DNA of 64,000 nt from a virus. Its lineage: Duplodnaviria > Heunggongvirae > Uroviricota > Caudoviricetes. Made by a program: the position numbers and the translations under genes. Under the pieces are notes generated by a model. It was not told where the DNA came from. It was given only the letters and a program-made list of their open reading frames with translations, and ran no database searches. Positions within the stretch are counted from its first letter, which is position 1, and the number at the start of each line of letters is the position of its first letter. The stretch lies in IMG/VR virus record IMGVR_UViG_3300006092_000059, positions 12,516 through 76,515 of that record; one strand, written 5' to 3'. Below, piece by piece: positions 42,931-59,404 of this stretch.

Positions 42931-43749
42931 TCATTTGTAGACTGTTGCAACAGGTACTGGAAGAGATTCTAAGTTATATTTTTTGATAAGAGAAGCAGCA
43001 GCGGAATAATCAGAATTGTTAATAGTACTAATTATTATTTCTGCTAAGTTACTCCCATTTTCAATTTCCCCATGTTCCTTTACAAATTCTACAGCTCTTA
43101 GAGTGTTATCCCATACCCATTTAATAAGAGTGTCATCAAAAATCCAGAAATTACTCAAAACTCTATACTCAAATCTGTTTTGTTTGAGTTTTTCTCTGTA
43201 ATCTCCAGCTTTTCCATAAAGGTCTCTTCTATATAAGTCTGTATCCATTAAAATACTAGGAACTGCTAAGTGTAAATCAAGAGCTTTAACTACAGCTAAC
43301 ATATTTCTACCATCTATTGAATCAAATTCAAGATGTATATGCCCACCACAACTTCTTAATGTACCATCAGGAGATGGTCTTTCCATTTGCTCACCTTTTC
43401 TCCAAGCATCAAAAGATGGTTCACAACCAAATTCAGTTGCTTTAACATCTACTAGTTCTTCATAAGGAAAATGAGCAGATGCTTCTGTTCCTATATCATA
43501 AGAGTCTGGAATAATATTTTTCAGGTATTTCAAACCATAACGGATATTATTGGTGAATTCTTGCAAATCACTAGCTGGTGGTACATTGAATTCTACAGCA
43601 ACATTGTCATGTAGAAATGCAAAGCCATCCTTATCCATTGGCATTGGTTTTTCTTTTGTTCCCATTCCTACAATAGGAATAGAAGATTTGAATTTGTCTC
43701 CTTCTTTGAGAAAAAATTCTGGGTCTGTTCCAAATTTTGTTATCTTCAT
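42931..43749 (-). CDS. second amidoligase-like protein (COG2170/YbdK-like)
   Basis: N-terminus KFGTDPEFFLKEG (corresponds to GIELEF) and SCGGHIHLEFD (corresponds to the YbdK HVHVG motif). Confidence 0.45.
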   Translation of the reverse strand: MKITKFGTDPEFFLKEGDKFKSSIPIVGMGTKEKPMPMDKDGFAFLHDNVAVEFNVPPASDLQEFTNNIRYGLKYLKNIIPDSYDIGTEASAHFPYEELVDVKATEFGCEPSFDAWRKGEQMERPSPDGTLRSCGGHIHLEFDSIDGRNMLAVVKALDLHLAVPSILMDTDLYRRDLYGKAGDYREKLKQNRFEYRVLSNFWIFDDTLIKWVWDNTLRAVEFVKEHGEIENGSNLAEIIISTINNSDYSAAASLIKKYNLESLPVPVATVYK

Positions 43750-43950: not shown

Positions 43951-44427
43951 CTATTCTTTTACTTGCCAGTCAATTTTAGGACAATATTTACCTTTAAAAG
44001 ATTTCCAACCTTCTCCTATAATATCTGAGGTTTCAGATAAATTACGTGATACTGAACTCTGTGGAAATACTTCTTTAAAGTAATAAACGATTAATAATAT
44101 TACCACTGATACTGCTAATATAATTAACAATGGCCCAAGAATTGCCCAGAATCCATGTTTTACAGTAGTACCAATAAATACTCCTGCAAGTGAAAGAACT
44201 GCATAAGCCATCAATGTATTAACAATATTTCTTCCAAATGCTCCTGTTTCTCCACTTATTCCTTTATAGATAAGCCCAATCCAAGTAATAGGTAACATTA
44301 GGGTTGCCCATACTAATGCCCAGAAATAATCACAGAAATTTTCATTTGGTTCATCATTTCCAAACCATCCTGCATAATTAAGTTTCCAGAATTTATAATG
44401 CCACGAGTTGTTTTTTGTAAGTTTCAT
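43951..44427 (-). CDS. integral membrane protein
   Basis: 158 aa with ~4 predicted TM helices, immediately downstream of the NAMPT gene. Confidence 0.4.
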   Translation of the reverse strand: MKLTKNNSWHYKFWKLNYAGWFGNDEPNENFCDYFWALVWATLMLPITWIGLIYKGISGETGAFGRNIVNTLMAYAVLSLAGVFIGTTVKHGFWAILGPLLIILAVSVVILLIVYYFKEVFPQSSVSRNLSETSDIIGEGWKSFKGKYCPKIDWQVKE

Positions 44428-46057
44428 TTACTTGTTGTTTAATTTTGATTAAAGTTGTTTGATTGAAAAATTCTCCATTTCTGTAGATAGTTTTTAATTC
44501 ATTTTCTTCTGAGTTATATTTTTCCTCAGAAACTCCTGATTCACAGATATACTCTCCATCTACAAGGGAGATAAACTGAAATCCTTTTAATGATTTCTTA
44601 GTTCCATTATCTGTAATAGGATCTTTATAAATATCATATTCTTCTCTTACTCCTTCTACAAATGTTTCAAACCAGCAACCTTTAGCTGCAAATCCAGCAC
44701 TGTCACGAGTTAACATTACATAAGTGTAAGAGCCTATTCCTAATACAATATTAGTAGCAGCAAAACCTTTATCAGCAAGTCTGCTATACATAGCTACTTG
44801 ACGCTCAAGATTAATACTATCACCATAGATAGCACCAATATGTGAATCAAGAACTTTATATCCTTCATCACTAACAGTACCACCAAAAATATCCCAAAGT
44901 AGTTCTGCTACTCCTTTTGATTCTATTTGTGTAGTTGTATCATTATTTGAAATTCTTATCCATTTGTTTCTCATCTCAACTGCCTCAAATCCACAAATAA
45001 TATCTACAGGATCACCAGAATCAGGTCTTAATACTAATTTTCCTTCTCTTTCAAGGATTTCTTTCTTGAGCCTTGGTATAATATGAGTACAGGATTTCCA
45101 TGTATTCATAGTATCACATACATAAGATAAAATTCCTTTAGGGAATTTCTTTAGCCAATCTCTTAACATTAACCATTCTGCAATAGTTAAATAATCAGGA
45201 TTCTCTATAGAGCCTTCACATGGAGCATCAAATGAATAGTATTCTTTTATACTTTCATCTAACAATCCTTGTTTAAGTTTTCTTTCATAATAGAAAATAT
45301 TAGTACAGCTTACTGAATGTTCCGAAGCATTTACTGAGAAGATAGGTACTTCCTCTTCATCAAAATCATAATAATATCTTGATGCAGGAATTACATTCAA
45401 TGTATCACTTCCTGAATTACAAATAGCATGTCCTAATCCTACTGCAATAGAAGTATAAGGATTACCTCCTCTTGAGTGAAAATCATGACACATAAAATCA
45501 GCAAACCACAGATTTTTTGAATCTGTTTTAGTTACCCATTCTACTGCATTTTCTTTAAATTTAGCCCCAATAGTAGCAGCTGTGGGCATTTGCCATGCTA
45601 ACTTACTTACTAAAGTTTCTAAAAATAACCCAAGCCATGAATATCCATCTACTGTATTAATACCTGTCATATGAGGTATATTTGGTTGTGTAAACACACC
45701 CTCAGTAAGTGATTTAACATCTACAGGTAAATATCCTAAATTGTGTAATTGTTTGAAATGATCTCCATTATATTCAATCATAAGATATTTTGACATATCT
45801 TTAGCAAATTTCTCAGCTACTTCAATAGGTTTATTGAAGAAAAACTCTTGAAATGCACTATGGATATATCTCCAAGTTAACTGCTGACCAGCACTCATCA
45901 ATTTTTTAATAGATGGATGCATATTTTTAAGACTTCGTGGAATCCAATTCCAACCTTCTCTGCTAACATTTGGTGCTAACATAGAATGATGTCCTACTTT
46001 ATAGCCATCAGCCTCATAAAGAGGATTTAGTTTAAACGTCTGTTTTAATTTGTTCAT
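44393..46057 (-). CDS. nadV: nicotinamide phosphoribosyltransferase (NAMPT/NadV)
   Basis: LYEADGYKVGHH (NAMPT LLATDSYKVTHY), HDFHSRGG (HDFGYRG), LVLRPDSGDPVDI (LIIRPDSGNPLDTV), AIYGDSINL (IQGDGVDINTL). Confidence 0.85.
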   Translation of the reverse strand: MNKLKQTFKLNPLYEADGYKVGHHSMLAPNVSREGWNWIPRSLKNMHPSIKKLMSAGQQLTWRYIHSAFQEFFFNKPIEVAEKFAKDMSKYLMIEYNGDHFKQLHNLGYLPVDVKSLTEGVFTQPNIPHMTGINTVDGYSWLGLFLETLVSKLAWQMPTAATIGAKFKENAVEWVTKTDSKNLWFADFMCHDFHSRGGNPYTSIAVGLGHAICNSGSDTLNVIPASRYYYDFDEEEVPIFSVNASEHSVSCTNIFYYERKLKQGLLDESIKEYYSFDAPCEGSIENPDYLTIAEWLMLRDWLKKFPKGILSYVCDTMNTWKSCTHIIPRLKKEILEREGKLVLRPDSGDPVDIICGFEAVEMRNKWIRISNNDTTTQIESKGVAELLWDIFGGTVSDEGYKVLDSHIGAIYGDSINLERQVAMYSRLADKGFAATNIVLGIGSYTYVMLTRDSAGFAAKGCWFETFVEGVREEYDIYKDPITDNGTKKSLKGFQFISLVDGEYICESGVSEEKYNSEENELKTIYRNGEFFNQTTLIKIKQQVNETYKKQLVAL

Positions 46058-46875
46058 TTTAATTTTACTTCAATTAATCTGTCATTAACAAATCTTTGTT
46101 GTCTTGCAAAAGTTACATCCCCAAAGTTCAAGAATATATCTTCTTTACCTAAAAAGCTATTAGTAAAATAGATTTTTTCTAGATTTTGTTCTAGTTTACT
46201 AAATCCTTTACTAAATATTGCATGAGTTACACACAAATAAACTCTTTGAGCACCACGTATTTTAAGCTGTTTAGAACATTCTATAAATGTACCACCTCCA
46301 TCACAGAGATCATCTACAATTATACAATCTTTTTCAATTTTAGCTTCTAATGGTATTTCAATTGTATCTACTTGTCCTTTTACTCGTGTCTTATTACATT
46401 TTACTATATTAGTACTGCCTAATTCTTCTTCTATCCAAGCACCAGCACCTTTATCAGGAGCTATTATTGAATAATTAAGTAAAGAATTGTCAATAATACA
46501 TTGTTGTACTAAATCTGCAGTGACAGTAATTTCTTTACTTTTATTTATTAGTTCAAGACTTTTCTTTGAATGAGGTTTTAATATTTCTACTTCCTCAAAT
46601 TCTAATAAATTGATAAATCTTGCAACTAAATAAAGATCAGCAAATTCTCCTTCACTGAACTGTCTGTCACATCTAGCAGCTAATAAGTAATTAATTCTTA
46701 ATTTTCTTAATTTAGGACATATTCCTTTCAACTGGGCTAATAAAAATAAATCATCAAAAGATCTTAGTGATACACAAATTTCTTCTAAATCTTTAAATCC
46801 ATCTTCTTCTTTTAGAATTAAATGTTGATGCCCATCTGGAAAGTATGCTACATTAAGCTGTGATAAATTCCTCAT
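46054..46875 (-). CDS. ribose-phosphate pyrophosphokinase-like type I PRTase-fold protein (likely PRPP supply for NAMPT)
   Basis: PRPP-loop CIIVDDLCDGGGTF and IIAPDKGAGAW (Prs VVSPDAGG). Its stop overlaps the nadV start. Confidence 0.5.
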   Translation of the reverse strand: MRNLSQLNVAYFPDGHQHLILKEEDGFKDLEEICVSLRSFDDLFLLAQLKGICPKLRKLRINYLLAARCDRQFSEGEFADLYLVARFINLLEFEEVEILKPHSKKSLELINKSKEITVTADLVQQCIIDNSLLNYSIIAPDKGAGAWIEEELGSTNIVKCNKTRVKGQVDTIEIPLEAKIEKDCIIVDDLCDGGGTFIECSKQLKIRGAQRVYLCVTHAIFSKGFSKLEQNLEKIYFTNSFLGKEDIFLNFGDVTFARQQRFVNDRLIEVKLK

Positions 46876-48352: not shown

Positions 48353-48445
48353 TGTTCTGTGTCATTAAATATTTTCTAGATTTACCTAGAATTAATACAT
48401 GAATTGTTTTTGTTCTCTTTAATTTAATCATAAATTCAATTTAGT

Positions 48446-48520
48446 GGTTCCTACAGGATTTGAACCTGTGACCTTGACATTATGAGTGTCCTGCTCTAAC
48501 CAGACTGAGCTAAGAAACCT
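48446..48520 (-). tRNA. tRNA-Met (anticodon CAT; could be an Ile-lysidine type)
   Basis: Reverse complement GGTTTCT-TA-GCTC ... GAGC ... anticodon loop CTCATAA ... T arm ACAGG-TTCAAAT-CCTGT ... acceptor AGGAACC. Cloverleaf by hand. Confidence 0.7.
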
Positions 48521-48524
48521 TTGT

Positions 48525-48721
48525 ATACCTGGATGGAATCGAACCAACTCACTCTATTACGTAACCTTGTGATGTATTCTGATATTTTTGAAAAGTTACC
48601 TCTTCGTTGAATATACTCTAACATGGAAGGTGTAATAATCCCCCCGTTTCATACTCTTGTAAGAATATAAAGCGTGGGGAGATTACATAAAAATAGGCTT
48701 TGCCACTAAGCTACAGGTATG
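48525..48721 (-). tRNA. tRNA-like gene apparently split by a ~126-nt insertion (intron-containing tRNA, disrupted tRNA or pseudogene); anticodon unresolved
   Basis: The 5' half at 48721 downward reads ATACCTG-TA-GCTT-AGTGGCA-AAGC-C-TATTT(TT). The 3' half at ~48563-48525 reads ...AATAG-AGTGA-GTTGG-TTCGATT-CCATC-CAGGTAT-A. The acceptor halves ATACCTG/CAGGTAT are perfectly complementary, and D and T arms are present. The intervening sequence holds a 10-bp hairpin (TAATCTCCCC ... GGGGGGATTA). Confidence 0.4.
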
Positions 48722-48765
48722 CAGTGTTTTTTCCGCAATAGGAGAGACCACTAAACTCATTATCT

Positions 48766-49065
48766 TTATTCCCTCATGATATAAAAGTCCTCACTGTCTT
48801 TACTAATCTTAAGAAGTAAATTTCTTACTCCAACAGATATAACAGCGTGTTCTGTATCATCAAAAGAGGCATAATAGTATCTACCAGATGGTATATACAT
48901 TGTAAAATAACATGGGACATCTACATCTAAATGATCTGGACATTTTAATTTGATTAAGAGTACATGACATGCAGTATCTTCTACTTCATTAATCAAAAAA
49001 CCAGGTTTAGCATGAATTCTTAATTCATAATCATCCTGTGCAAATTTTCTTTCTCTTACAACCAC
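48766..49065 (-). CDS. hypothetical protein
   Basis: 99-aa ORF. Confidence 0.35.
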   Translation of the reverse strand: MVVRERKFAQDDYELRIHAKPGFLINEVEDTACHVLLIKLKCPDHLDVDVPCYFTMYIPSGRYYYASFDDTEHAVISVGVRNLLLKISKDSEDFYIMRE

Positions 49066-49252
49066 CTACTTTCTGTATTACAGTGAATACAACTCGTGGT
49101 TTAAATTCTTTTCTCTTAATCTTAGAGATTTGCTCTGTAATAAATTCAGCATCTTTAGGAATAGTGTTATTCTCTGAATATCTTCTAATTACATTTCCAA
49201 TTCTACTCATAATTTTAATCTTTCTTTTACTAAGTTGATAATTTTTTTCCAA
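49031..49252 (-). CDS. hypothetical protein
   Basis: 73-aa ORF. Confidence 0.3.
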   Translation of the reverse strand: MEKNYQLSKRKIKIMSRIGNVIRRYSENNTIPKDAEFITEQISKIKRKEFKPRVVFTVIQKVGGCKRKKICTG

Positions 49253-50340
49253 TTCTTGGCAGGTATTTCATAATTCTCTAAGTCTTTTAAACTCAAGCAA
49301 GGTTTGTTATTGATAATATATTCTTCAGCTTTTTCTTTTGTTGAAAAGAAAAAATATGTAGTTGAATTTTTTACATGACATTCTTTACAATTATCCCATT
49401 TTTCCACATTCCAGGGAACTGCTAAACTATTAGGTTTACCTACTGAATAAACTGTAAAATTTTCTTCATAAATATCAACTCCATCTTCTGTAGTGAATAA
49501 TGGTTGTTTATAATGTTGAATATCTTTCAAACTATAGCAACAATTAATATGTAAAATCTTACCATTCATAAGAATATCATTTGTTTTTTCACAAATAAAT
49601 AATCTATCAATAATAGGTGTTTGTATAATACTATGTGGAGGACAAGCTTGATACTTTATTTTATCTCCAATCTTAAACTCTACTCCATCAGATAGTCTTT
49701 TGACACTATAGATTTCTACTAAATTACTAGAAACAGCTCTTAACATTTCTTTTAATGTGGCTAATGAATTAGCACCATTATTACTAATATATTTATTCTT
49801 ATTTAAATAATAAATTACACTTGAATCTATTTTTCCTCTAAAAGCAGTAATTTCATATTCTTTAGGTTTTACTTTAATAACATCTTGTATAGTTACTTTA
49901 GTATGTCCATCTTCAAACCATACTCCTAATCCTCCTAACCAAGGGCTACCAGTTCTTTTTATAGACTCTTCTGATGTTTCAAATTTAGTAATTATGCCAT
50001 ATTGAGTATTGTCATTAATAGTAAATACTTCACCATCAGATTCTCTACGAATTGAATGAATTCCCCATCCAGGATTACCTTTAATATTTTTTAAGTAGGC
50101 TTTTATTTCTTGTTTAGCTATTAAAATAACTCCTTTTTGACTATTATTAAGAATTTCAATTAAAGATAATATAGTATATTCATCTTTAATTTCTTCCCAA
50201 TCTGAAGAATTCTCTACTACCCAAGCTGGAAGTATTTCTTCTCTCTCAGTATCCATATTAATACAATATTGAGAAGTAACAAATTTTTCAGCTACTTTTC
50301 CAGTTTGTTTATGCTTGAATCTCTTTTTCATAATTTCCAC
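49207..50340 (-). CDS. hypothetical protein
   Basis: 377-aa ORF. Confidence 0.4.
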   Translation of the reverse strand: MEIMKKRFKHKQTGKVAEKFVTSQYCINMDTEREEILPAWVVENSSDWEEIKDEYTILSLIEILNNSQKGVILIAKQEIKAYLKNIKGNPGWGIHSIRRESDGEVFTINDNTQYGIITKFETSEESIKRTGSPWLGGLGVWFEDGHTKVTIQDVIKVKPKEYEITAFRGKIDSSVIYYLNKNKYISNNGANSLATLKEMLRAVSSNLVEIYSVKRLSDGVEFKIGDKIKYQACPPHSIIQTPIIDRLFICEKTNDILMNGKILHINCCYSLKDIQHYKQPLFTTEDGVDIYEENFTVYSVGKPNSLAVPWNVEKWDNCKECHVKNSTTYFFFSTKEKAEEYIINNKPCLSLKDLENYEIPAKNWKKIINLVKERLKL

Positions 50341-50699
50341 TTTTCAATTTCTAAAATAGGTTTTTTAATTATCAGTTTTTGAAGCTTTTTGTATAAATCT
50401 TCTACTTTCTTTCTGTGTTCATCAAAATAACTTCTTACACTATAATTTTCAGCTCCCTTGCAAAGTAAAATTTTATCCCCATTACTTAATTCAATTCTTA
50501 ACCTAGGAGATTTTAATACATATGTAGCTTTTTCTCCTATTCTTACTGTACCACCTGGAGTATGATACTTTGGATTATTAATATGACAGTCATAATAATA
50601 ACCATTGTATTCTATAGAAAGAATATTCTCTGTATTAATATTAAGTTCACCTTGTGAATCTTTTACTGTAATGAAGCTCATGGTAAATATTTTATACAT
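50328..50699 (-). CDS. hypothetical protein
   Basis: 123-aa ORF. Confidence 0.35.
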   Translation of the reverse strand: MYKIFTMSFITVKDSQGELNINTENILSIEYNGYYYDCHINNPKYHTPGGTVRIGEKATYVLKSPRLRIELSNGDKILLCKGAENYSVRSYFDEHRKKVEDLYKKLQKLIIKKPILEIEKWKL

Positions 50700-50884
50700 C
50701 CAAATACTAAAGCAAATAGACTATACGCAGTAGTAAATATTAAACTAACAGATAGAACATCAGGTTCTCTGTCAAATATTGCTGCTTTTTTATTTTTAAT
50801 AAGATACCACCATCCTGTAGCAGTAAAACTTATTATTATTGTTGATAGTGTTATCATTTTTAAATTTCTTTCATTATTAAACAT
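50678..50884 (-). CDS. small membrane protein
   Basis: 68 aa with two TM helices. Confidence 0.3.
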   Translation of the reverse strand: MFNNERNLKMITLSTIIISFTATGWWYLIKNKKAAIFDREPDVLSVSLIFTTAYSLFALVFGCIKYLP

Positions 50885-51114
50885 TTGATATTAGAATAAG
50901 GGATAAATAATGTATCTTTTCCCCATACTATATGTAAAGCTACATCAGTTTCATTTCTGAAGTGAACTTTAATTTTTTCTTCTCTTAAATATCCATAATT
51001 AGGATTAGTTACTATTAAGTGTTTATCAGTAGCTTCTTCCTTAAACTGAATTCTGTCAATAGTGCATTCATTTTTTATCATAGAATGTACTAATTGTATA
51101 TCATACTCTTTCAT
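50860..51114 (-). CDS. hypothetical protein
   Basis: 84-aa ORF. Confidence 0.3.
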   Translation of the reverse strand: MKEYDIQLVHSMIKNECTIDRIQFKEEATDKHLIVTNPNYGYLREEKIKVHFRNETDVALHIVWGKDTLFIPYSNIKCLIMKEI

Positions 51115-51825
51115 CTAAATGTGATTTGTAAAAGCATCTGGCCTCATTCCTTTTGCTTCAAGTTTAATCCTTGTTTCTTCTTTTTCCCTTAATACTTTTT
51201 CTCTAAGAATTCTTCTAAATTCTAATTCAGTTAGAATAGGAATTTTCTTGGATCTCCTGCTGTTTAGTATTTTTTGTCTTCTTTTCTCAGAATAATATCT
51301 TTTAAATCTTCTGTCTTGTTTAGACTCAAAATACTCAGCATTATCTTTAATTAGAATAAAATACTGTTTATGCCAATACTCTCCAGCAGGATAACTATTA
51401 TCATACCTGTTAGGATAAGCTTGAATAATTTTCCAGGTAGTTCTTTCCCAAGACCATGGATATCTATAAGCTTTTTCTAAATAAAGATTCGGAATCTTAT
51501 TAATACAGATAGATTTCTTTGGCTTAGTTATCATATATTCCTGAATTTTACCAAACTCATCAATATAATAATTAGCATATCCCCATTCAGGAGCAAATTC
51601 TTTTAAAAAATATTTTTGTTGATACTTAGGAACTAATCTACAATAATGACTAAAAGCCTCTTCAAAAGTTCTTCCAAGATATTTAGTAATAATTCTCTGA
51701 GCAATAGTGTAAGGATAATAATCTCCTACTTTATGACATTCATCATCTTTATAGTTATGTTTCCATTTATGATGTTTATTAGATTCTCTATAAGGTAAGT
51801 TTTCTAATTTTTCTATATCAATCAT
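51115..51825 (-). CDS. hypothetical protein
   Basis: 236-aa ORF with a basic C-terminus. Confidence 0.4.
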   Translation of the reverse strand: MIDIEKLENLPYRESNKHHKWKHNYKDDECHKVGDYYPYTIAQRIITKYLGRTFEEAFSHYCRLVPKYQQKYFLKEFAPEWGYANYYIDEFGKIQEYMITKPKKSICINKIPNLYLEKAYRYPWSWERTTWKIIQAYPNRYDNSYPAGEYWHKQYFILIKDNAEYFESKQDRRFKRYYSEKRRQKILNSRRSKKIPILTELEFRRILREKVLREKEETRIKLEAKGMRPDAFTNHI

Positions 51826-51838
51826 TGTATAAATTTTG

Positions 51839-51912
51839 TGTGTTAGAGAGGATTTGAACCTACTGTCTTAGGATCCACAGTCCTACACTCTAGCCAATTG
51901 AGCTACTAACAC
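51839..51912 (-). tRNA. tRNA-His (anticodon GTG)
   Basis: Reverse complement (G)GTGTTAG-TA-GCTC ... anticodon stem TAGGA/TCCTA with loop CTGTGGA ... TTCAAAT T-loop ... acceptor CTAACAC, which pairs perfectly. An extra G sits at -1, as in bacterial tRNA-His. The T-stem has one mismatch. Confidence 0.55.
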
Positions 51913-51920
51913 CGTATTAA

Positions 51921-52394
51921 TTATTTGTATTTCTTGTTTCTTCCTCTAAAGTTTCTTGTCTGAGAATGACAATTAGGACAAAGTAGTTGTAGATTAGTAA
52001 AGGTATGATCATTACTAATACCGTTAATATGATCTAATTCTAGAACAATTACTGAATCATTCCATTCACATATTCCACAACATTTACATTTATACTCTAA
52101 TAATCCTTCTCGTAATAATCTCTTTTTTAGATGATTTATACTTATAAATAAACTATCCTTTACTAGAATATCTTCTAATTTAATATCTTTTTTAAATTTT
52201 CTAAATCTACTTCCTTGATTCCAAGCTTTTCCAGTAAAATGTGACGTATCTATATTAAATTCCTTTATCTTAAAATTTAAAGTTCGATAGTTACCTCCTA
52301 CAGGTTTAATGTTTAATTTTCTACATACATCTGCTATTGATAAACTTTCTTTAATGGTATTTTCTAATTCTTCTTTTGTAAATTTGTATTTCAT
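51921..52394 (-). CDS. HNH homing endonuclease
   Basis: CKCCGICEW ... LELDHINGISNDHTFTNLQLLCPNCHSQT. Confidence 0.65.
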   Translation of the reverse strand: MKYKFTKEELENTIKESLSIADVCRKLNIKPVGGNYRTLNFKIKEFNIDTSHFTGKAWNQGSRFRKFKKDIKLEDILVKDSLFISINHLKKRLLREGLLEYKCKCCGICEWNDSVIVLELDHINGISNDHTFTNLQLLCPNCHSQTRNFRGRNKKYK

Positions 52395-52471
52395 ATCTTA
52401 ATTATTTAAGACACGAAAATAAGCAAATCTTTCGAGATTACCAAATTTATAATTAAAATGTATTATTTTAG

Positions 52472-52557
52472 TGAGGATAGCAGGGGTCGAACCTGCAAGA
52501 GTATTACTACCCTAAAGCTTTTTAAGAGCTTCTTGTACACCAATTCCAACATATCCT
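52472..52557 (-). tRNA. tRNA-Leu (anticodon TAA), long variable arm
   Basis: Reverse complement GAGGATA ... anticodon stem AAGCT/AGCTT with loop CTTAAAA ... 18-nt variable arm ... T arm GCAGG-TTCGACC-CCTGC ... acceptor TATCCTC. Confidence 0.65.
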
Positions 52558-52571
52558 CTTTCCAAATAAAG

Positions 52572-52641
52572 TTGGAGGTACTGGACTCGAACCAATACAC
52601 AGAGGCCCAAAACCTCTAGTTCTACATTAAACTAACCTCCA
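52572..52641 (-). tRNA. tRNA-Gln (anticodon TTG)
   Basis: Reverse complement TGGAGGT ... anticodon stem AGAGG/CCTCT with loop TTTTGGG ... T arm ATTGG-TTCGAGT-CCAGT ... acceptor ACCTCCA. Confidence 0.6.
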
Positions 52642-52838
52642 ATTTTATCTCTTGTTGTATGTCTATTCCTTTTAGCTTTGCTTTTCTGAGGAATAAATGT
52701 TGCATTTGAATTCTTACTTTTTCTTCTTTTACTTCTACTTCTATTATAGTAATAAATTCCCACTCTATCTGGTAGGATAGCTACTGTAGGATAAAAGTCT
52801 CCAAAGTATAACAATGCTGATATTAAATATACTATCAT
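52632..52838 (-). CDS. questionable small basic ORF (3' end overlaps the tRNA-Gln 5' end)
   Basis: 68 aa with a very basic tail. Low coding plausibility. Confidence 0.2.
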   Translation of the reverse strand: MIVYLISALLYFGDFYPTVAILPDRVGIYYYNRSRSKRRKSKNSNATFIPQKSKAKRNRHTTRDKIGG

Positions 52839-53134
52839 TTTGTTTTTAATTCTACTACTACAACTTTTCCTTTAGGAGTATTATATGATTTAGGTTTTCT
52901 TGACAAAGTAAGATCTTTATCAAAAGTTCCTACAGGAGCTGTAATAGGATTAGTACGTTTAAAACTAATTCTAGTCACTCTATTAGGTACAGAACATACT
53001 GTACAATATGCTTTACCATTCTCTTTACCTTTAGAAAATCCTAAATTATGTAATCTTCTTTTCTTTCCATAAATTCTGTCTTGTTGTTCATCTGTACAAG
53101 TACAGTCTAATACTACTGTTGTGTCCTTTGCCAT
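52835..53134 (-). CDS. hypothetical protein with Cys pairs (zinc-ribbon-like)
   Basis: CTCTD ... CTVCS. Confidence 0.35.
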   Translation of the reverse strand: MAKDTTVVLDCTCTDEQQDRIYGKKRRLHNLGFSKGKENGKAYCTVCSVPNRVTRISFKRTNPITAPVGTFDKDLTLSRKPKSYNTPKGKVVVVELKTK

Positions 53135-53135
53135 G

Positions 53136-53354
53136 TTAATCTTTTAGTTCTTTTAATATTTTAATACACCAGTGAAATACTGTTGGATATTCTCTATACT
53201 CATTACGCTCTGAATGCCAATCAGGATTATATTTATACCATTCTTTTTTTATTTCAAATTGGTATAAAAAATTTACTAATACTGCAAGAGTTTGTGCAAT
53301 ATACACCAGTACTGACCAAACCATTAAAACTATTGGTACGATAATATATTTCAT
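53136..53354 (-). CDS. small membrane protein
   Basis: 72 aa with an N-terminal TM helix. Confidence 0.3.
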   Translation of the reverse strand: MKYIIVPIVLMVWSVLVYIAQTLAVLVNFLYQFEIKKEWYKYNPDWHSERNEYREYPTVFHWCIKILKELKD

Positions 53355-53977
53355 AATGTTAAAAGTTTATCTAAGTTAATATTATTTGGTAGACTTCTGT
53401 ATTCAATTCTTTTTCCAAATTCACCATCCTTAATAGCATAAACTCCTGGAACTCTTTTTGAATTTTTTATCTCAGAAGAAAATATTTTATCCAAATTTCT
53501 AATAATAGTAGGAAACTCAAACAAAGTATTACGTGTTTTATATGTATACTTTTCTTTTTTATCTTCTTTACTATAAGTGTAAAATGATACTTCTTCAGTA
53601 TTTGATATATTAATTTGAAGAGAAGCTTTAAACTGTTTTACACTTAAAATTTTTCCAGTAGATTTTCCATAAATAGAAAAAGTTTCTAATTGGTTCTTCT
53701 TTTCAGAATAACCTCTACTTGCTCTAAAATCTTTTAGAAATTTATCATCTACTTTAATCTCAGGAATTAATAAAAGTGTATATCCTTTCTTACTTAGTGC
53801 TTTTTCTTCCAGATATAAGAGTTTTTTAAGCTCAAATACACAATCAGTAATACTATCATGCACTTTAGTTCTTAGTTCACCTATAATATGATTTCCATCA
53901 ACATTATAAGTACCTTCTATAGCTGGTACTATATTTCTTTTCTTTACAAAGAATTCAAGTTCTATTCCGTATTTCAT
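53351..53977 (-). CDS. possible third amidoligase-like protein (short)
   Basis: N-terminus MKYGIELEFFVKK matches the YbdK/amidoligase GIELE motif. Only 208 aa, so possibly truncated or diverged. Confidence 0.3.
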   Translation of the reverse strand: MKYGIELEFFVKKRNIVPAIEGTYNVDGNHIIGELRTKVHDSITDCVFELKKLLYLEEKALSKKGYTLLLIPEIKVDDKFLKDFRASRGYSEKKNQLETFSIYGKSTGKILSVKQFKASLQINISNTEEVSFYTYSKEDKKEKYTYKTRNTLFEFPTIIRNLDKIFSSEIKNSKRVPGVYAIKDGEFGKRIEYRSLPNNINLDKLLTL

Positions 53978-54195
53978 TTTTTGTTTTTTATGTTTTTAAA
54001 TTCATAGTGACTAAACCTTACTATGCTGTCTTTTGTAATCCAATCACAAGGCATATCAATAGGTTGATATATAATGCGACCTGGAAGTTTAACTTCAAAA
54101 TAGAAACGACAATTTATATTGTCTAATTTCTCTACTTTTTTAATTATTCCTATTCCAGATTCTTGGAATAAGAGTAGGAATATTAGAAGTTTCAT
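53974..54195 (-). CDS. hypothetical protein
   Basis: 73-aa ORF. Confidence 0.3.
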   Translation of the reverse strand: MKLLIFLLLFQESGIGIIKKVEKLDNINCRFYFEVKLPGRIIYQPIDMPCDWITKDSIVRFSHYEFKNIKNKK

Positions 54196-54196
54196 A

Positions 54197-54403
54197 CTAC
54201 CAACTTATATGTTTACTACCTACAGTATATCCTAATTCAGTTAGTCTTTTCTTTACTGAGTCAGTAATAAGATCTTCAGTACTTGTATTATACTTTCCAT
54301 TATTAGCAGCTGCTTGAATTTGGAATATTAAAGTATTATACATTCTTTCATCTCTTTCTTGATTTTTTTCAAGAGATTTCTTTTTTGCTTCTTCTGCTGT
54401 CAT
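54197..54403 (-). CDS. hypothetical protein (start trimmed to the internal Met; the track ORF start at 54454 overlaps tRNA-Trp)
   Basis: MTAEEAKKKSLEKNQ... Confidence 0.3.
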   Translation of the reverse strand: MTAEEAKKKSLEKNQERDERMYNTLIFQIQAAANNGKYNTSTEDLITDSVKKRLTELGYTVGSKHISW

Positions 54404-54424
54404 ATTTTTATTTTTTTTATTTAG

Positions 54425-54496
54425 CACCCCAGACTGGATTCGAACCAATATCACTGGTTTTGGAGACCAGTATACTAACCATTATACTACTGAGAT
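54425..54496 (-). tRNA. tRNA-Trp (anticodon CCA)
   Basis: Reverse complement ATCTCAG-TA-GTAT ... anticodon stem CTGGT/ACCAG with loop CTCCAAA ... T arm ATTGG-TTCGAAT-CCAGT ... acceptor CTGGGGT. The acceptor pairs fully, with two G-U. Confidence 0.6.
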
Positions 54497-54804
54497 AAAA
54501 AATCTTTTCTGTCCAATTTCTAAGTGGACTAAATTTATTTACAATATCTACTTAAAAACGCAGATAGTCTTGATAAATAATATTTATCTTTACATAAAAC
54601 AACACCTACTTAGATTAGGTCTAATAATTACCAAATTAGGCTTCAAGCTTAGCTTACATGGATATTTAACGAGCCTCTTATTAGTGTTTTACTTCAAGCA
54701 GAAAAGACTTTGTGGAGATGGAGGGCAATTGTTATAGTTTGTTAATTCATTTGGAAATTTCAAAGAAATGTGTTATATTTACCACATCTCCAAAATAACT
54801 AAAC

Positions 54805-55269
54805 ATGAATATAGATTACATTTCTGGATTCTTTGATGCTGATGGCTCTATCACTATGTCATATAGCTCTAAGAAAGATACTTTTAGGACTATAAAAATA
54901 GACTTTACTAATAATGAAAAAGATATTTTAATATCTATTCAAAAATTTTTATTAGAAAATTATAGTATTAAAGCTTATATAACTTCTAAGGAAATTAAAA
55001 AAGCTAATCATAATAAAGCTTATGCTTTATCTGTGTCAAGCAATCAAATGTGTTATGAATTATGTAAAATTTTAAAATCAATACATCCTAAAAAACTACA
55101 TAGGATTAATACAATTTTAAAATATCATAATATTGTAACAAAAAGAAATGGAAAATATAATTATAAACAAACTATGAGAAAATTGGCTTATGAAAGACTA
55201 TTTTTCTCCTCACTTTTTCAAGTAAGATCGGACTATATCATCATCCCCACAAGGGGAGTAGGAAGCTAA
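54805..55269 (+). CDS. LAGLIDADG homing endonuclease (single-motif, I-CreI-like size)
   Basis: ISGFFDADGS is the LAGLIDADG motif at residues 6-15. 154 aa. It is the only + strand gene in a long - strand block. Confidence 0.75.
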   Translation: MNIDYISGFFDADGSITMSYSSKKDTFRTIKIDFTNNEKDILISIQKFLLENYSIKAYITSKEIKKANHNKAYALSVSSNQMCYELCKILKSIHPKKLHRINTILKYHNIVTKRNGKYNYKQTMRKLAYERLFFSSLFQVRSDYIIIPTRGVGS

Positions 55270-55385
55270 ATCTGGTTATTAAGAACACTTTAGTTCTCCA
55301 GTAGTCTCTGAACCTTTACAAAATGTATTTTGTACTTGGCTGCTGATTGGCATAGATTTTTCCTTAGCTTTCCAGCAATTCATCC
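55225..55385 (-). ncRNA. group I intron catalytic core (P, Q, R, S elements) on the - strand; the total extent, probably ~55150-55520, and the host gene are unresolved
   Basis: On the - strand, in the correct order and spacing: P AATTGCTGGAAA (consensus AATTGCGGGAAA; + strand coordinates 55369-55380). Q AATCAGCAGC (AATCCGCAGC; 55339-55348). R TTCAGAGACTAC (TCAGAGACTACA; 55301-55312). S ATGATATAGTCC (AAGATATAGTCC; 55230-55241). Hairpins lie between R and S (AGAAC ... GTTCT, TCCCC ... GGGGA). Confidence 0.55.
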
Positions 55386-55610
55386 TATTTTTACATTAGT
55401 GTTGCCACTAAGTCAACCCTTTGAGTTGAACCCTCGTATTCTCTACAGGTATTTAGAAAATTTATTTATAAGCTTAGGCATATTTTAAGAAAATAGCCAA
55501 AATTAGGGCTGATCAGAATTGCTTCTAATTCAGAGTCCACCATTGTATTTTGTTGAAAACACAAAAAACTGCGCTATTTACCCAATAGCAGGTTAGTAGT
55601 CTTCTGTTCC

Positions 55611-55744
55611 TAAGCTTCTACTAGCTCGAGGCCTTGATATGCAGCAACTTCTTCTTCAGAAATATTATCTGCAATTCCCTCTAAGAGGTCATCAATGCCA
55701 GTCATGTTCAACTTACTGTTGTCATTTACTGTTTCAGTATCCAT
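55611..55744 (-). CDS. possible small acidic protein (~44 aa, below the ORF-track cutoff)
   Basis: Reverse strand reads MDTETVNDNSKLNMTGIDDLLEGIADNISEEEVAAYQGLELVEA. Confidence 0.2.
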
Positions 55745-55926
55745 TTTTATGATGTAGTATACCAACCATCAACTTAATTTTCTAACATATTGTAAAGAGC
55801 TTGCCCGTCATCCCCATGGTGATAACAGAGTAGGTGAGGTTAAAGTAAACATCAGGCACAGGTACGTACGATGTGTGTGCAGTATATTTTACCTAGTACA
55901 TTTCACTTTCTCTGTTATCAGTATTT

Positions 55927-56160
55927 TTATTCCCAAGCTCCAAGACACCATGCTATAATTACAAGAAATCCTCCTGCTAATGCTATGCATAGCTGAAGTA
56001 CCCATACTGCTAAATATGCACTCCAAAATGTCTCATCTGGTTGAGAAGTTCCTACAGTTACTCCTATCAAAATAGGAAATAAATTACAAAGTAAAAATAT
56101 TCCTAAACTTCTTTTGGCGAAGATAGTTAATTCTTTATTTGAATATTCTGGTAACTTCAT
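55927..56160 (-). CDS. small membrane protein
   Basis: 77 aa with two TM helices. Confidence 0.3.
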   Translation of the reverse strand: MKLPEYSNKELTIFAKRSLGIFLLCNLFPILIGVTVGTSQPDETFWSAYLAVWVLQLCIALAGGFLVIIAWCLGAWE

Positions 56161-56908
56161 GAGTATTAGTTTTTTGTACTTGTTTACTTACTGTTGATAA
56201 GATAGGTGTGTATTTAAAACTATTTCGTCTCAAAAAGGTATTGTATAAGCTTCCAGGAAATTGCTTTAATAAGTTTTCATGCTGCGCATTTACACTCTGC
56301 AAAGCTTTTTCTTGTTGAAAGAATCCTTCACTGTTATTATTTGCCAGTTCAAGTAATTGTTGATAAAAACTACTTACTTGTGTATAATTAGCACTTGGAT
56401 CTATTAATCTTATAGCTCCCATAAAAGCACTTAGATTCTGTGGCTGTCCCAACATTACAATATCTACAATATGATAGAAACTACTATCATTTCGTAACGC
56501 AATTTGAGAAGTTCCAGCTACCTGGTCATATGCTTTATCATAGAAAGTAATTCTTTCCTGTTCTAACTGTTTAAACTCAGTAGTAAGAGCTACCTCTTTA
56601 TTACTAAAATCAATTACTTGAGATACTTGATCCCATACAGCTGTACCTACTACAAAAAATATTACAGCAAGTAATGAGCCAATTATAAGTTTTTTTAAAT
56701 TCATTTTGTTTTTGTTTTTTAATACTAAATAATGTGTTAATGTAATTGGGAATATTAAAGCCAATATATAGGCTGTAGTTTTTCTGTCATATTTATCCCC
56801 TAAAAGATATGACTTCATGAACGAAATTGTAATATCCTCATCTTTGTTTAATAAATAAACAGTTAAGAGATAAATACTACATACCGTTAGAATAGCTATG
56901 GAACTCAT
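56135..56908 (-). CDS. membrane-anchored hypothetical protein
   Basis: N-terminal TM segments including an internal MNLKKLIIGSLLAVIFFVVG signal anchor. Confidence 0.4.
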   Translation of the reverse strand: MSSIAILTVCSIYLLTVYLLNKDEDITISFMKSYLLGDKYDRKTTAYILALIFPITLTHYLVLKNKNKMNLKKLIIGSLLAVIFFVVGTAVWDQVSQVIDFSNKEVALTTEFKQLEQERITFYDKAYDQVAGTSQIALRNDSSFYHIVDIVMLGQPQNLSAFMGAIRLIDPSANYTQVSSFYQQLLELANNNSEGFFQQEKALQSVNAQHENLLKQFPGSLYNTFLRRNSFKYTPILSTVSKQVQKTNTHEVTRIFK

Positions 56909-57167
56909 CTGGTAAAGTATCTATTAGTTTCTTGGTTACATAAAAATAATTTCCTTCATAAAGATACCTTGTTTTTTTAATAGTTTCATATGACTTTGTA
57001 GGATCAAATGTATATTTTTTCAAGATTAGTTCTTTATGAGTTACTTTTGTTGATTGTTTTTCTGTTTTAACAGTTGGATTAAAAGTATAAAATAAACTGT
57101 TATGCATATAGTGTATTGCTCCTAATGTAAATAAGAATACACTTGCTAAGATTAATATTTTTTTCAT
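56877..57167 (-). CDS. secreted or membrane small protein
   Basis: N-terminal signal peptide MKKILILASVFLFTLGA. Confidence 0.35.
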   Translation of the reverse strand: MKKILILASVFLFTLGAIHYMHNSLFYTFNPTVKTEKQSTKVTHKELILKKYTFDPTKSYETIKKTRYLYEGNYFYVTKKLIDTLPDEFHSYSNGM

Positions 57168-57925: not shown

Positions 57926-57936
57926 TTTTTTAATTT

Positions 57937-58140
57937 TTATTTTTTATCTGTTTTTTCCCAAGCATCTCCTAGTTTATGAGCTACTGCTAATACTAGGCAT
58001 ACTAATAATATAATTCCTACAGTTTTAGGATATAAAAATATTAATTGTGTTCCAAAATAAAGTGCAACCATTATACATCCTATTACAGTAAGTATAATAA
58101 GTCCTTTTCCTGTTGTTCCTAAGATTTTTAATATTTTCAT
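57937..58140 (-). CDS. small membrane protein
   Basis: 67 aa with two TM helices. Confidence 0.3.
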   Translation of the reverse strand: MKILKILGTTGKGLIILTVIGCIMVALYFGTQLIFLYPKTVGIILLVCLVLAVAHKLGDAWEKTDKK

Positions 58141-58529: not shown

Positions 58530-58668
58530 AATTTTCTTATTAACTGCTCTGTAAAAAAACCTTCTTCACTACCTAGCATTAGAAACCCATACACACCACA
58601 AGTAATAACTGTAAGAACTGCTTCAATACCGAATATAATACAAATTAAGATTCCTATTACAATAGTTC

Positions 58669-59211: not shown

Positions 59212-59219
59212 GTTTTTTT

Positions 59220-59390: not shown

Positions 59391-59404
59391 TTTTAAATTT
59401 TTAG

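Follow-up and report, generated by a model that had tools for sequence, protein, structure and literature searches.

An overlapping Prs-like and NAMPT-like gene pair of an uncultivated phage as a probable NARP1 module

Two overlapping genes in this phage DNA encode a Prs-like and a NAMPT-like protein. The question they raise is whether the pair would make NMN from PRPP, as a sequence-only reading proposed, or would rebuild NAD+ directly from ADP-ribose (ADPR) and nicotinamide. The genes lie in a window of 64,000 nucleotides, the whole stretch analysed (positions 12,516 to 76,515 of IMG/VR virus record IMGVR_UViG_3300006092_000059). The pair was recovered exactly where that reading had placed it, a small membrane-protein gene follows it, and genes predicted independently on the contigs of the source metagenomes gave identical products (273, 554, 158, 67 and 272 aa). 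The features referred to below are as follows.

46054 to 46875, minus strand: adps-like gene, first of the pair, encoding a 273-aa PRPS-fold protein, a predicted ADP-ribose pyrophosphokinase (Adps)
44393 to 46057, minus strand: namat-like gene, second of the pair, encoding a 554-aa NAMPT-fold protein, a predicted nicotinamide ADP-ribose transferase (Namat)
46054 to 46057, minus strand: ATGA stop/start overlap of the two genes of the pair, read from the sequence
43951 to 44427, minus strand: downstream neighbour encoding a 158-aa membrane protein with three TM helices, matching phrog_944 'membrane protein'
514 to 6663, plus strand: gene for a 2049-aa polyvalent protein with an N-terminal ART-PolyVal domain, found by Pfam scan

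In the overlap, AAAATGAACAAA, TGA is the stop of the 273-aa reading frame and ATG the start of the 554-aa frame, which makes the translational coupling proposed earlier plausible. The window proteins were singletons, found in JGI/IMG metagenomes and SRR1027651 with a contig no longer than 76.5 kb, and no near-identical relative of the window was present among 50,697 phage records. The host of the source phage, which is uncultivated, is probably a member of the Bacteroidota. In seven of eight close IMG/VR relatives a Prs-like gene and the Namat homologue were no more than 10 kb apart, and the closest relative of the Adps-like protein (P0124, 61% identity) adjoins its own Namat-type (NAMPT-family) gene. 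Osterman et al. looked for a Namat homologue within ten genes of Adps; here the two are adjacent and overlap.

The 273-aa protein matched PF00156, PF14572 and phrog_619 'ribose-phosphate pyrophosphokinase' (E = 2.5e-53), and PDB entries for Prs matched with E values of 5e-12 to 1e-10. The Prs-like PRTase fold assigned to it earlier was thus upheld by profile search, and Hpt and Upp, the unrelated PRTases that had been named as the identities to exclude, were rejected because the protein is clearly Prs-like. Several curated Prs models also matched, every one below its cut-off. On TIGR01251 (cut-off 113) the protein scored 84 bits, compared with 423 for E. coli Prs and 96 to 139 for the Adps references (those of SPbetaL1, FADO and ICP1 and the Bas63-like Adps of phage momo), placing it ~340 bits under a true Prs and in the regime of validated Adps. 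Among Prs equivalog and subfamily models, the top-scoring ones gave 45 to 83 bits against cut-offs of 296 to 518 (83 vs 296, 63 vs 297). An HMM built from the four Adps scored the protein at 144 bits and E. coli Prs at 87, and phmmer gave 69 to 83 bits against validated Adps (~30% identity) and 44 against E. coli Prs, the comparison set for cellular Prs being this one sequence together with the curated profiles.

All ligand and catalytic residues of ICP1 Adps (PMC13586617) aligned with counterparts in the 273-aa protein (F18, R87, F92, H121, D161, K185, D212, D213, C215, D216, G217, F221), including the catalytic β-hairpin lysine (ICP1 K185, SPbetaL1 K162). The PP loop reads DDLCDGGGTF, the remodelled Adps type described for ICP1 in the same study, as opposed to DDMIDTGGTL in Prs; the DTGGT ribose-5-phosphate loop of Prs is replaced by CDGGGTF, and DD[LI]CDGGxTF occurs in 116 of the 120 members of the family (median length 267 aa). 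Relative to full-length Prs (~315 aa), the protein lacks the N-terminal β-α unit and the C-terminal helices: the α11-α12 regulatory/filament module is missing, and the alignment stops ~22 residues before the C-terminus of E. coli Prs, as it does for all validated Adps. A canonical PRPP synthetase was rejected on the missed curated thresholds, the loop and the absence of both Prs termini. We predict instead an Adps that would convert ADPR and ATP to ADPR-PP and AMP, substrates and products being those of its homologues.

The 554-aa protein matched PF04095 NAPRTase (E = 2e-23), phrog_448 'nicotinamide phosphoribosyl transferase' (E = 3e-132) and, at 344 bits, NF006629 (cut-off 405), which bears out its earlier assignment to the NAMPT family. 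Its top PDB sequence matches were 9W5W and 9W5X, the Namat of SPbetaL1 (E = 3e-82); Haemophilus ducreyi NadV (HdNadV) ranked second in both sequence (E = 7e-70) and fold, and Xcc Nampt and human NAMPT followed at E = 5e-31 and E = 7e-24. The AF2 model (pLDDT 85.8) likewise gave the Namat structures 9W5X and 9W5W as its top Foldseek matches (E = 1e-40, TMt 0.89). In phmmer comparisons the protein scored 249 to 280 bits against the Namats of SPbetaL1, FADO, ICP1 and Bas63-like momo (31 to 37% identity to NARP1 Namats) and 61 to 107 bits against the Nampts of ACP17, Synechococcus phage B23, phiAS5 and RTH11, so that the Namat references are nearer by 140 to 220 bits. These four Nampts, each adjoined by an Nmnat homologue, served as proxies for the KVP40-type clade. 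A neighbor-joining tree placed the 554-aa protein in a Namat clade with 100% bootstrap support. HdNadV, which we take to be a functional PRPP-dependent Nampt, also fell inside this clade, and clade membership alone is therefore no proof of Namat activity.

Residues separating the two classes were compared. The catalytic core is kept (D13, Y15, F189, R192, D215, A242, R306, D308, G360, D361 and the His of EHS), and the positions compared are in the Namat state throughout, except for Met in place of Tyr/Phe at one adenine-clamp position. The protein has GS at 390-391 (GG in Nampt), T398 (D/N in Nampt) and residues other than Gly at 190 and 362 (Gly at both in Nampt); 362 is Ser, and 190 is His where characterised Namats have Ser. 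Its extended SCL loop, PRSLKNMHPS, has Lys in the Arg40 column, as in the FADO, ICP1 and Bas63-like momo enzymes, the Nampt loop being shorter. The adenine contacts K40, Y392, T398 and D400 and all NMN-site residues are retained. The adenine clamp reads GS-Y-T-Y-V-M-L-TRD against the published consensus GSX-phi-X-phi-X-phi-TRD: the frame agrees, as do Tyr at position 3, Thr at phi1 and Tyr at position 5. Position 7 and phi2 deviate: the former is Met, at the site where Tyr396 of SPbetaL1 stacks on the adenine, and the latter is Val, at a site usually occupied by Gln/Asn. We predict a Namat, which by analogy with its homologues would use ADPR-PP and nicotinamide to form NAD+ and PPi.

The window was translated in six frames and every resulting ORF was compared with a profile of four phage Nmnats (best E = 4); Pfam scans of the window ORFs returned no CTP_transf_like or NUDIX domain. 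Together, the window and 10 kb upstream (~74 kb of phage genome) contained no Nmnat, Macro, RyR or PnuC gene. The NMN adenylyltransferase that the sequence-only reading called for was thus not found in this span, and NARP1 needs none.

These results bear on the PRPP-dependent route, under which a true PRPP synthetase would feed a true Nampt to give NMN, and host NadD or NadR or an unseen phage Nmnat would complete NAD+, as in NARP2 or classical salvage. Both proteins do belong to the Prs and NAMPT superfamilies, Namat keeps PRPP-dependent NMN synthesis in vitro, HdNadV sits among the Namats, the Tyr396-equivalent clamp position is Met and the Nmnat search covered only ~74 kb. We nevertheless regard this route as very unlikely, given the Adps-like scores, PP loop and C-terminus of the 273-aa protein, the proximity of the 554-aa protein to Namats and its K40, S391, Y392 and S362, which HdNadV does not share. 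An Nmnat is adjacent in four of four Nampt-type reference phages, and none was found in the window or its relatives. In addition, SPbetaL1 Adps yielded no product in a PRPP-synthetase test, and no phage carrying both NARP1 and NARP2 was found in the original study (Osterman et al., 2024, bioRxiv 10.1101/2024.02.11.579819). The earlier proposal of PRPP supply to an NMN-making NAMPT is not supported: both proteins group with their NARP1 counterparts, apart from Prs and from the Nampts that are linked to an Nmnat.

The gene pair is very probably a NARP1 (NAD+ reconstitution pathway 1) module composed of Adps and Namat. This reading draws on homology, clade placement, residue conservation, the adjacency and overlap of the genes and the absence of Nmnat from the available sequence, with activity, substrates, products and anti-defence role inferred from the homologues of SPbetaL1, Bas63, FADO and ICP1. 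During infection a host defence NADase (Thoeris, DSR1/2, SIR2-HerA, SEFIR or similar) would cleave NAD+ to ADPR and nicotinamide. The 273-aa Adps-like enzyme would then pyrophosphorylate ADPR to ADPR-PP, and the 554-aa Namat-like enzyme would exchange the pyrophosphate of ADPR-PP for nicotinamide, giving NAD+ directly. Such a route would need no PRPP, NMN, NMN adenylyltransferase or import, the last because both substrates arise inside the cell. That gene pairs annotated Prs plus Nampt can constitute NARP1 was shown experimentally: SPbetaL1 Adps makes ADPR-PP from ADPR and ATP, Namat makes NAD+ from ADPR-PP and nicotinamide in one step and, when PRPP and ADPR-PP were offered together, only NAD+ was formed (Osterman et al., 2024). 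Structures of NARP1 enzymes are available (PMC12774641, PMC13586617). The broader proposal of the sequence-only reading, a two-enzyme module that replenishes NAD+ and counters NAD+-depleting defence, is supported as the most plausible role.

The 554-aa protein belongs to a subclade of at least 120 clusters at 90% identity, metagenome-only and probably from Bacteroidota phages, with many members on contigs of 100 to 434 kb. The subclade was essentially missing from 185,579 species genomes, consistent with the phage-specific distribution reported for NARP1 (Osterman et al., 2024). His190, at the NMN-phosphate site, is present in 117 of 119 members and Val/Ile at phi2 in all 120; clamp position 7 is Met in ~78, Tyr in ~33, Phe in ~8 and Leu in 2. 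Two insertions account for a length of 554 aa instead of ~490: one of ~35 residues after the catalytic His, predicted as ordered helices (pLDDT >90), and a disordered loop (359-377). The Adps partners of the subclade are heterogeneous and include a type with the loop DDICVYGGTF that lacks R87 and D216.

Such features could mean that the pair is NARP1-derived with a shifted specificity, acting on another ADPR-derived pyrophosphate or using PRPP and ADPR-PP alike. The subclade-specific Val395/Met396 clamp, His190 and the ~35-residue insertion would then be adaptations, and the fixation of variant features across a large lineage, the predicted order of the insertion and the mixed Adps partners are in keeping with this. 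We consider it very unlikely for the window pair. Close relatives differ readily at clamp position 7, which may be Met, Tyr, Phe or Leu; this points to tolerance of the substitution, not to a changed specificity, and single clamp mutations in SPbetaL1 Namat cut activity just 1.3- to 1.7-fold. The remaining adenine contacts and the NMN site are intact in the 554-aa protein, and its 273-aa partner has canonical ADPR-contact residues. For the subclade as a whole, a donor specificity shifted or broadened beyond ADPR-PP alone is a slim prospect; if real, it would represent a functional NARP1 variant tuned to a different NAD+-cleavage product.

The sequence-only reading also linked the pair to a PARP-like ADP-ribosyltransferase. 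An ADP-ribosyltransferase domain is indeed encoded, as the ART-PolyVal domain of the 2049-aa protein, a virion-type polyvalent protein whose gene is ~38 kb from the pair on the opposite strand. In ART reactions ADP-ribose stays attached to the target, and free ADPR is not produced. Every window ORF of 85 aa or more was scanned with Pfam, as were ORFs of at least 70 aa dropped by the first gene call, and no match to Macro (PF01661) or RyR (PF02026) was returned, so the module is not of the NARP1-AP/RyDEP-extended type, whose operons add a Macro-domain ADPR-1''-P phosphatase (Adpp) or a RyR-domain glycosidase; no ARH (ADP-ribosylglycohydrolase) or NADAR gene was found in the window. A functional tie to the ART-PolyVal protein is therefore mechanistically weak, since the ART would yield bound ADPR and the window has no Macro or ADP-ribosylglycohydrolase to release it.

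Separately, one related phage lineage and a Tenacibaculum chromosomal cluster were seen to carry ADP-ribosylglycohydrolase genes close to genes of the Namat family. Together with the presence of the ART-PolyVal protein in the same window, these genes are what would favour a module that, instead of counter-defence, chiefly serves NAD+ consumption by the phage through ART-PolyVal or another of its NAD+-dependent enzymes. This is extremely unlikely: Adps needs free ADPR, the genes are distant from each other and characterised NARP1 modules act while a defence NADase is at work and otherwise cause no rise in NAD+ (Osterman et al., 2024).

The 158-aa ORF overlaps the NAMPT-like gene by 35 nt. Its product was earlier described as a 4-TM protein and possible nicotinamide or nicotinamide riboside transporter; three TM helices were predicted (35-53, 68-86 and 96-114), and profile searches gave no match to PnuC or another transporter family. 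No fold match was obtained (best Foldseek E = 3.2, low-confidence model), and Pfam scans of window ORFs contained no NadR partner. Only five homologues were found in 5.8 billion clusters. One follows Namat in the closest relative (L030), another lies 4.7 kb from the NAMPT-family gene (L031/L032), and a further one has no NARP1 gene nearby (L033); none of 13 other NARP1-type loci had a membrane gene after Namat. Conservation is confined to the soluble termini (NFCDYFW, FKGKYCPxIxW), and the TM helices vary in sequence and number. The transporter assignment is not supported by these results, and the protein is probably not a functional part of the NAD+ pathway.

The pair matches a known pathway. 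Very probably it is one more, unexceptional instance of a phage counter-defence already described, as opposed to a salvage system based on PRPP, and it leaves knowledge of how phages rebuild NAD+ unchanged. PHROGs, NCBIfam and most GenBank records seen use the names 'ribose-phosphate pyrophosphokinase' and 'nicotinamide phosphoribosyltransferase', which invite the PRPP-based misreading. With NARP1, the predicted substrates become ADPR and nicotinamide instead of ribose-5-phosphate, Nmnat and a transporter become dispensable and the predicted function becomes counter-defence against NAD+-depleting immunity at little metabolic cost. The range of NARP1 would extend to a phage lineage that is uncultivated and probably infects Bacteroidota, and the Namat subclade, which is sizeable and varies in its adenine clamp, would reasonably merit biochemical study.

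Among known systems, NARP2 (Nampt plus Nmnat; Vibrio phage KVP40 and relatives) also restores NAD+ during infection with a phage-encoded NAMPT-fold enzyme. Its Nampts, represented by the four stand-ins, have GG...[DN]RD, no aromatic clamp, Gly190, Gly362 and a short SCL, from which the 554-aa protein differs throughout; an Nmnat always adjoins them and a Prs-like partner is missing, the opposite of the window pair on both counts. HdNadV, crystallised with NMN and with nicotinamide (PDB 9KE8/9KEO), resembles the 554-aa protein in fold, sequence and placement, but its clamp is lost (E40, A391, Q392, R396, G362), whereas the 554-aa protein retains K40, S391, Y392 and S362 and comes with a coupled Adps-like partner. 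The 158-aa protein differs from NARP3 and PnuC-type nicotinamide riboside transporters in homology, TM number (three) and the lack of a NadR partner. Bacterial nrtR-prs-nadV operons (Rodionov et al., 2008, PMC2330246) and bacterial pfNARP1 (PMC12774641) likewise combine a short Prs paralogue with a NadV/Namat-type gene, and the chromosomal copy of Tenacibaculum maritimum has a PP loop of the same type (DDICDGGGTF) with a canonical Namat clamp (GSFTYQYNTRD). Unlike the window pair, these copies are chromosomal, have an ADPR-responsive NrtR-type regulator and lie among ADP-ribosylglycohydrolase, Tpt1 and NADAR genes; presumably they serve housekeeping ADPR recycling and not counter-defence.

The closest likeness is to NARP1 of the Bacillus phages SPbetaL1 and FADO, E. 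coli phage Bas63 and Vibrio phage ICP1. The window pair differs from these in its modest identity (only ~30% for Adps, 31 to 37% for Namat), a Y-T-Y-V-M-L clamp in place of F/Y-T-Y-Q-Y-N, His190 in place of Ser, the two Namat insertions and an Adps N-terminus that is the shortest in the set compared. It shares with them the order adps then namat in tight linkage, the folds, a phage-restricted distribution and the absence of Nmnat from the searched sequence. Also shared are the catalytic Lys, ADPR/ATP contact residues and remodelled PP loop of Adps and the catalytic core, GS...TRD frame, aromatic clamp positions 3 and 5 and basic SCL residue of Namat.

The two genes in question are consecutive on the minus strand and are followed by a gene for a small membrane protein:

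46054-46875, minus strand, 273-aa Prs-like protein
44393-46057, minus strand, 554-aa NAMPT-family protein
43951-44427, minus strand, 158-aa membrane protein

The first two ORFs share an ATGA overlap, and the last 35 nt of the 554-aa ORF overlap the start of the third. The same products were obtained from independent gene calls, on the metagenomic contigs carrying these proteins. The sequence-only reading of a NAMPT-family protein overlapping a Prs-like protein was borne out by family matches, the 554-aa protein belonging to the NAPRTase/NAMPT family (PF04095; phrog_448, E = 3e-132) and the 273-aa protein being Prs-like (PF00156/PF14572; phrog_619, E = 2.5e-53). A phage operon annotated "Prs + Nampt" has been shown to be NARP1, in which Adps pyrophosphorylates ADP-ribose to ADPR-PP, giving no product in a PRPP-synthetase test, and Namat converts ADPR-PP and nicotinamide directly to NAD+, preferring ADPR-PP when PRPP is also offered; NARP2 consists of a true Nampt and Nmnat, and the NARP1 and NARP2 Nampt-like groups fall in separate clades (Osterman et al., bioRxiv 10.1101/2024.02.11.579819). 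Residue-level markers were taken from crystal and cryo-EM studies of Namat (PMC12774641) and Adps (PMC13586617). By profile scores and residues both proteins, and by clade the 554-aa protein, fall on the Adps/Namat side, which speaks against the earlier proposal that the Prs-like protein supplies PRPP to a Nampt. The mechanism is very probably that of NARP1, in which NAD+ is made from ADPR via ADPR-PP, and not a conversion of PRPP to NMN: the 273-aa enzyme would convert ADPR to ADPR-PP, from which, with nicotinamide, the 554-aa enzyme would form NAD+. The proposed theme of NAD+ replenishment, most plausibly against NAD+-depleting defence, is retained.

For the 273-aa protein, the cellular Prs comparison consisted of one sequence (E. 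coli) and curated Prs profiles; because a tree with a single Prs outgroup is weak on clade separation, calibrated profile scores were relied on. With TIGR01251, E. coli Prs scored 423 bits, four validated-type Adps proteins 96–139 bits and the 273-aa protein 84 bits, and the last lay >200 bits under the threshold of every Prs equivalog and subfamily model. With a profile of the four Adps proteins the order was reversed (273-aa protein, 144 bits; E. coli Prs, 87 bits). The ADPR/ATP-binding and catalytic residues of ICP1 Adps were all aligned (F18, R87, F92, H121, D161, K185, D212, D213, C215, D216, G217 and F221). The PP loop, DDLCDGGGTF, is exactly that of crAss-like phage cr85_1 and is near the Bas63-like DDICDGGRTF, the Prs loop being DDMIDTGGTL; the Prs N-terminal β-α unit and C-terminal helices are absent. 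An IMG/VR peptide-word scan found no close relative of this protein; a large protein database contained a family of 165 relatives (E ≤ 1e-8), and among the 120 listed (median 267 aa) DD[LI]CDGGxTF was found in 116 and a hairpin K-x-R in 113. Assignment to an unrelated PRTase such as Hpt or Upp, which the sequence-only reading had named as the outcome to check for, was rejected, since such matches reached only E ~2e-3 vs 1e-23 for Prs models. These features together identify the 273-aa protein as a putative Adps-type enzyme.

The top PDB sequence matches of the 554-aa protein were 9W5W/9W5X, the Namat of SPbetaL1 (E = 3e-82), with weaker matches to Xcc Nampt (5e-31) and human NAMPT (7e-24). Namat references with genomic context were SPbetaL1, FADO, ICP1 and the Bas63-like Felixounavirus momo. 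Nampt references adjacent to Nmnat (ACP17, Synechococcus phage B23, phiAS5 and RTH11) were found using an Xcc Nampt fragment and used in place of KVP40, whose nadV and natV were not in the 195-245 kb stretch of its genome; the unannotated neighbour of RTH11 Nampt was a Nmnat homologue by profile search. The 554-aa protein scored 249–280 bits against the four Namats and 61–107 bits against the four Nampts, and in a neighbor-joining tree it formed one clade with its relatives and the validated Namats (100% bootstrap). All class-separating columns were in the Namat state: positions 390-391 are GS where Nampts have GG, positions 190 and 362 carry residues other than the Gly of Nampts, position 398 is Thr rather than Asp/Asn, and the SCL loop is long and has Lys in the Arg40 column. 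The catalytic His and every NMN-site residue were kept. The best structural match of an AlphaFold2 model (pLDDT 85.8) was Namat 9W5X/9W5W (E = 1e-40, TMt 0.89). The 554-aa protein is thus predicted to be Namat-type. Its extra length (554 vs ~490 aa) is due to two insertions, one modeled as ordered helices after the catalytic His (~254-296, pLDDT >90) and the other a disordered loop (359-377). It belongs to a large metagenome-only subclade with the variant clamp described below and the extra helical insertion; this subclade was nearly absent from 185,579 species genomes, where the single match was a 1.6-kb MAG fragment, uninformative on host.

The adenine-clamp motif, the one real deviation of the 554-aa protein, reads GS-Y-T-Y-V-M-L-TRD, compared with GS-F-T-Y-Q-Y-N-TRD in SPbetaL1, and has Met in place of the adenine-stacking Tyr396. 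At this position (clamp position 7), the 120 homologues listed (58–73% identity) have Met (~78), Tyr (~33), Phe (~8) or Leu (2); across the subclade, the second phi site of the motif is fixed as Val/Ile and position 190 as His. That close relatives interchange Met and Tyr/Phe freely at clamp position 7 speaks for a tolerated variant. In SPbetaL1 Namat, mutating one clamp residue at a time reduced activity by ≤1.7-fold (PMC12774641). The residual uncertainty is chiefly biochemical and concerns donor preference given Met at clamp position 7.

The sequence-only reading had proposed a search for an NMN adenylyltransferase. No Nmnat, Nudix, PnuC, NadR, Macro (Adpp phosphatase) or RyR (RyDEP accessory of extended NARP1) domain was found in the window using Pfam with ORFs ≥85 aa and added ORFs ≥70 aa, no Nmnat was found in the window by six-frame profile search, and none of these domains was found in the 10 kb beyond the window start. 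ORFs ≥70 aa overlapping neighbours, including those at 24.2-25.8 kb, contained no NAD-related gene. As none of the known accessories was found, the locus is best described as a plain two-gene NARP1.

The 158-aa protein, previously suggested to be a nicotinamide or nicotinamide riboside transporter, had phrog_944 "membrane protein" as its sole family match and three predicted TM helices. The large database contained just five homologues. In the closest relative the homologue comes after Namat, in a second lineage it is 4.7 kb away from the NAMPT-family gene, and in another case there is no NARP1 gene nearby. At 13 other NARP1-type loci, no membrane gene was present downstream of Namat. The invariant residues of this family lie in the soluble termini (NFCDYFW and FKGKYCPxIxW, one Cys each), and the TM helices differ in sequence and number. 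No PDB fold match was obtained (best E = 3.2, from a low-confidence model), and a semiSWEET/PnuC-like fold was unsupported by the fold search, the model's pLDDT of 65 allowing no strict exclusion. Since NARP1 uses no imported substrate, no transporter is required. The protein was treated as a lineage-specific neighbour with no positive sign of being a transporter.

Of eight close IMG/VR relatives, seven had a Prs-like gene ≤10 kb from the Namat homologue, and the remaining one may have it just past the end of the flank retrieved. The nearest relative of the Adps (P0124, 61% identity) adjoins a gene of Namat type in a phage whose neighbouring genes are similar, and the order in a 73%-identical relative is Adps, small ORF, Namat, membrane protein. 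Phylogenies were compared for window 44393-46875 and stretches L002, L005-L012, L028 and L030 of relatives. The Adps groups with that of crAss-like cr85_1 (82% bootstrap), whereas the Namat clusters with jumbo-phage contigs from IMG/VR that encode Adps proteins of other subtypes (one of the DDICVYGGTF type without R87 and D216), and the partner of P0124 is a FADO-like Namat. This conflict suggests, from sequence comparison, that adps and namat genes have been shuffled between phages.

Genes for amidoligase-related proteins are also present:

24306-25982, minus strand, Amidoligase_2
25912-27654, minus strand, GATase
27658-28473, minus strand, ATP-grasp
30055-30423, minus strand, gamma-glutamyl cyclotransferase
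42931-43749, minus strand, phiEco32-type COOH-NH2 ligase, two genes downstream of Namat

In Leptolyngbya phage Lbo-JY46 (L004), the Namat/Adps genes have GATase, GGACT and a homologue of the COOH-NH2 ligase as direct neighbours, and in relative L028, GATase and Amidoligase_2 are nearby. Amidoligase genes and NARP1 may be recurrently associated. In a related phage lineage (L031/L032, 130-kb contig; 9356-10063, 11190-12495), the third called gene upstream of the Namat-family gene encodes an ADP-ribosylglycohydrolase, which could be an accessory freeing ADPR for NARP1.

An ADP-ribosyltransferase domain is encoded near the window start:

514-6663, plus strand, 2049-aa polyvalent protein, N-terminal ART-PolyVal domain at residues 99-177

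The enzyme had been called PARP-like; the ADP-ribosyltransferase assignment stood, and the PARP label did not, there being no PARP-family match. Immediately before the window (L023 1-10022) lie genes for proteins of >4097 aa and 217 aa and for a GIY-YIG endonuclease. A functional link between the ART and NARP1 is speculative; ARTs leave ADP-ribose attached to targets, and no hydrolase able to free it was found in the window.

The window is clearly phage DNA (DNA polymerase A, primase, DnaB-like helicase, ribonucleotide reductase, Sak4, homing endonucleases and giant virion-type proteins). No near-identical DNA relative was found among 50,697 phage records. The 273-, 554- and 158-aa proteins are singletons in a collection of ~15 billion proteins (sources, JGI/IMG metagenome and SRR1027651; contig ≤76.5 kb). 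Near the window end, a 293-aa ORF (62142-63023) matched a 1.9-kb contig as its sole record, and a 265-aa ORF (63059-63856) matched no record. Shine-Dalgarno motifs were rarer upstream of 95 called genes than in background (5% vs 12%), gene leaders were 48% A and G+C was 29%; with the sequence affinities, these features suggest a Bacteroidota host. The pair lies within a long co-directional gene array; a promoter/terminator scan found promoter-like sites near it at chance level (33 vs 28.6 ± 5.2 expected) and no terminators around it that would mark operon boundaries. Other features were:

48444-60457, minus strand, seven tRNA genes (Met, His, Leu-TAA, Gln, Trp, Lys, Arg-TCT), with small ORFs and homing endonucleases interspersed
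51921-52394, HNH homing endonuclease within the tRNA region
54805-55269, plus strand, LAGLIDADG homing endonuclease within the tRNA region
13144-13962, minus strand, dATP/dGTP diphosphohydrolase N-domain fused to NT5C-like nucleotidase
14734-15576, minus strand, calcineurin-like phosphoesterase
17105-17518, minus strand, Dam methyltransferase
18107-18433, minus strand, MazG
7324-7704, minus strand, 126-aa SET-domain protein adjoining glycosyltransferase genes

The nucleotidase, phosphoesterase, Dam and MazG genes are a hint that the phage manipulates dNTP pools or modifies DNA. Few phages encode a SET domain.

A chromosomal cluster of Tenacibaculum maritimum (GCA_902705395.1, L026 7247-13808) contains genes for an NrtR-type Nudix regulator, an Adps-like protein (280 aa, DDICDGGGTF), ADP-ribosylglycohydrolase, Tpt1/KptA, Metallophos, NADAR and a Namat-type protein (485 aa, GSFTYQYNTRD, 621 bits against SPbetaL1 Namat), and looks like an ADPR-inducible bacterial locus recycling ADPR to NAD+. 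If so, it would explain why nrtR-prs-nadV operons carry a second Prs dedicated to NadV, a puzzle raised earlier (PMC2330246).

The second-best structural match of the 554-aa protein was Haemophilus ducreyi NadV (9KE8/9KEO, crystals with NMN and with nicotinamide; identified from the fold-search description). Its sequence, partial and rebuilt from a printed alignment, was placed next to SPbetaL1/FADO within the Namat clade (100% bootstrap). HdNadV is known as a classical, functional, PRPP-dependent Nampt, and since it nests there, clade membership alone is no proof of ADPR-PP use. HdNadV has lost all clamp residues (R40E, S391A, F392Q, Y396R, A362G) and looks like a Namat-lineage enzyme that is now a PRPP-dependent Nampt. 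Unlike HdNadV, the 554-aa protein retains K40, S391, Y392 and S362, and its gene is coupled to one of Adps type; the pair would be a further case of NARP1, in an uncultivated phage that probably infects Bacteroidota.
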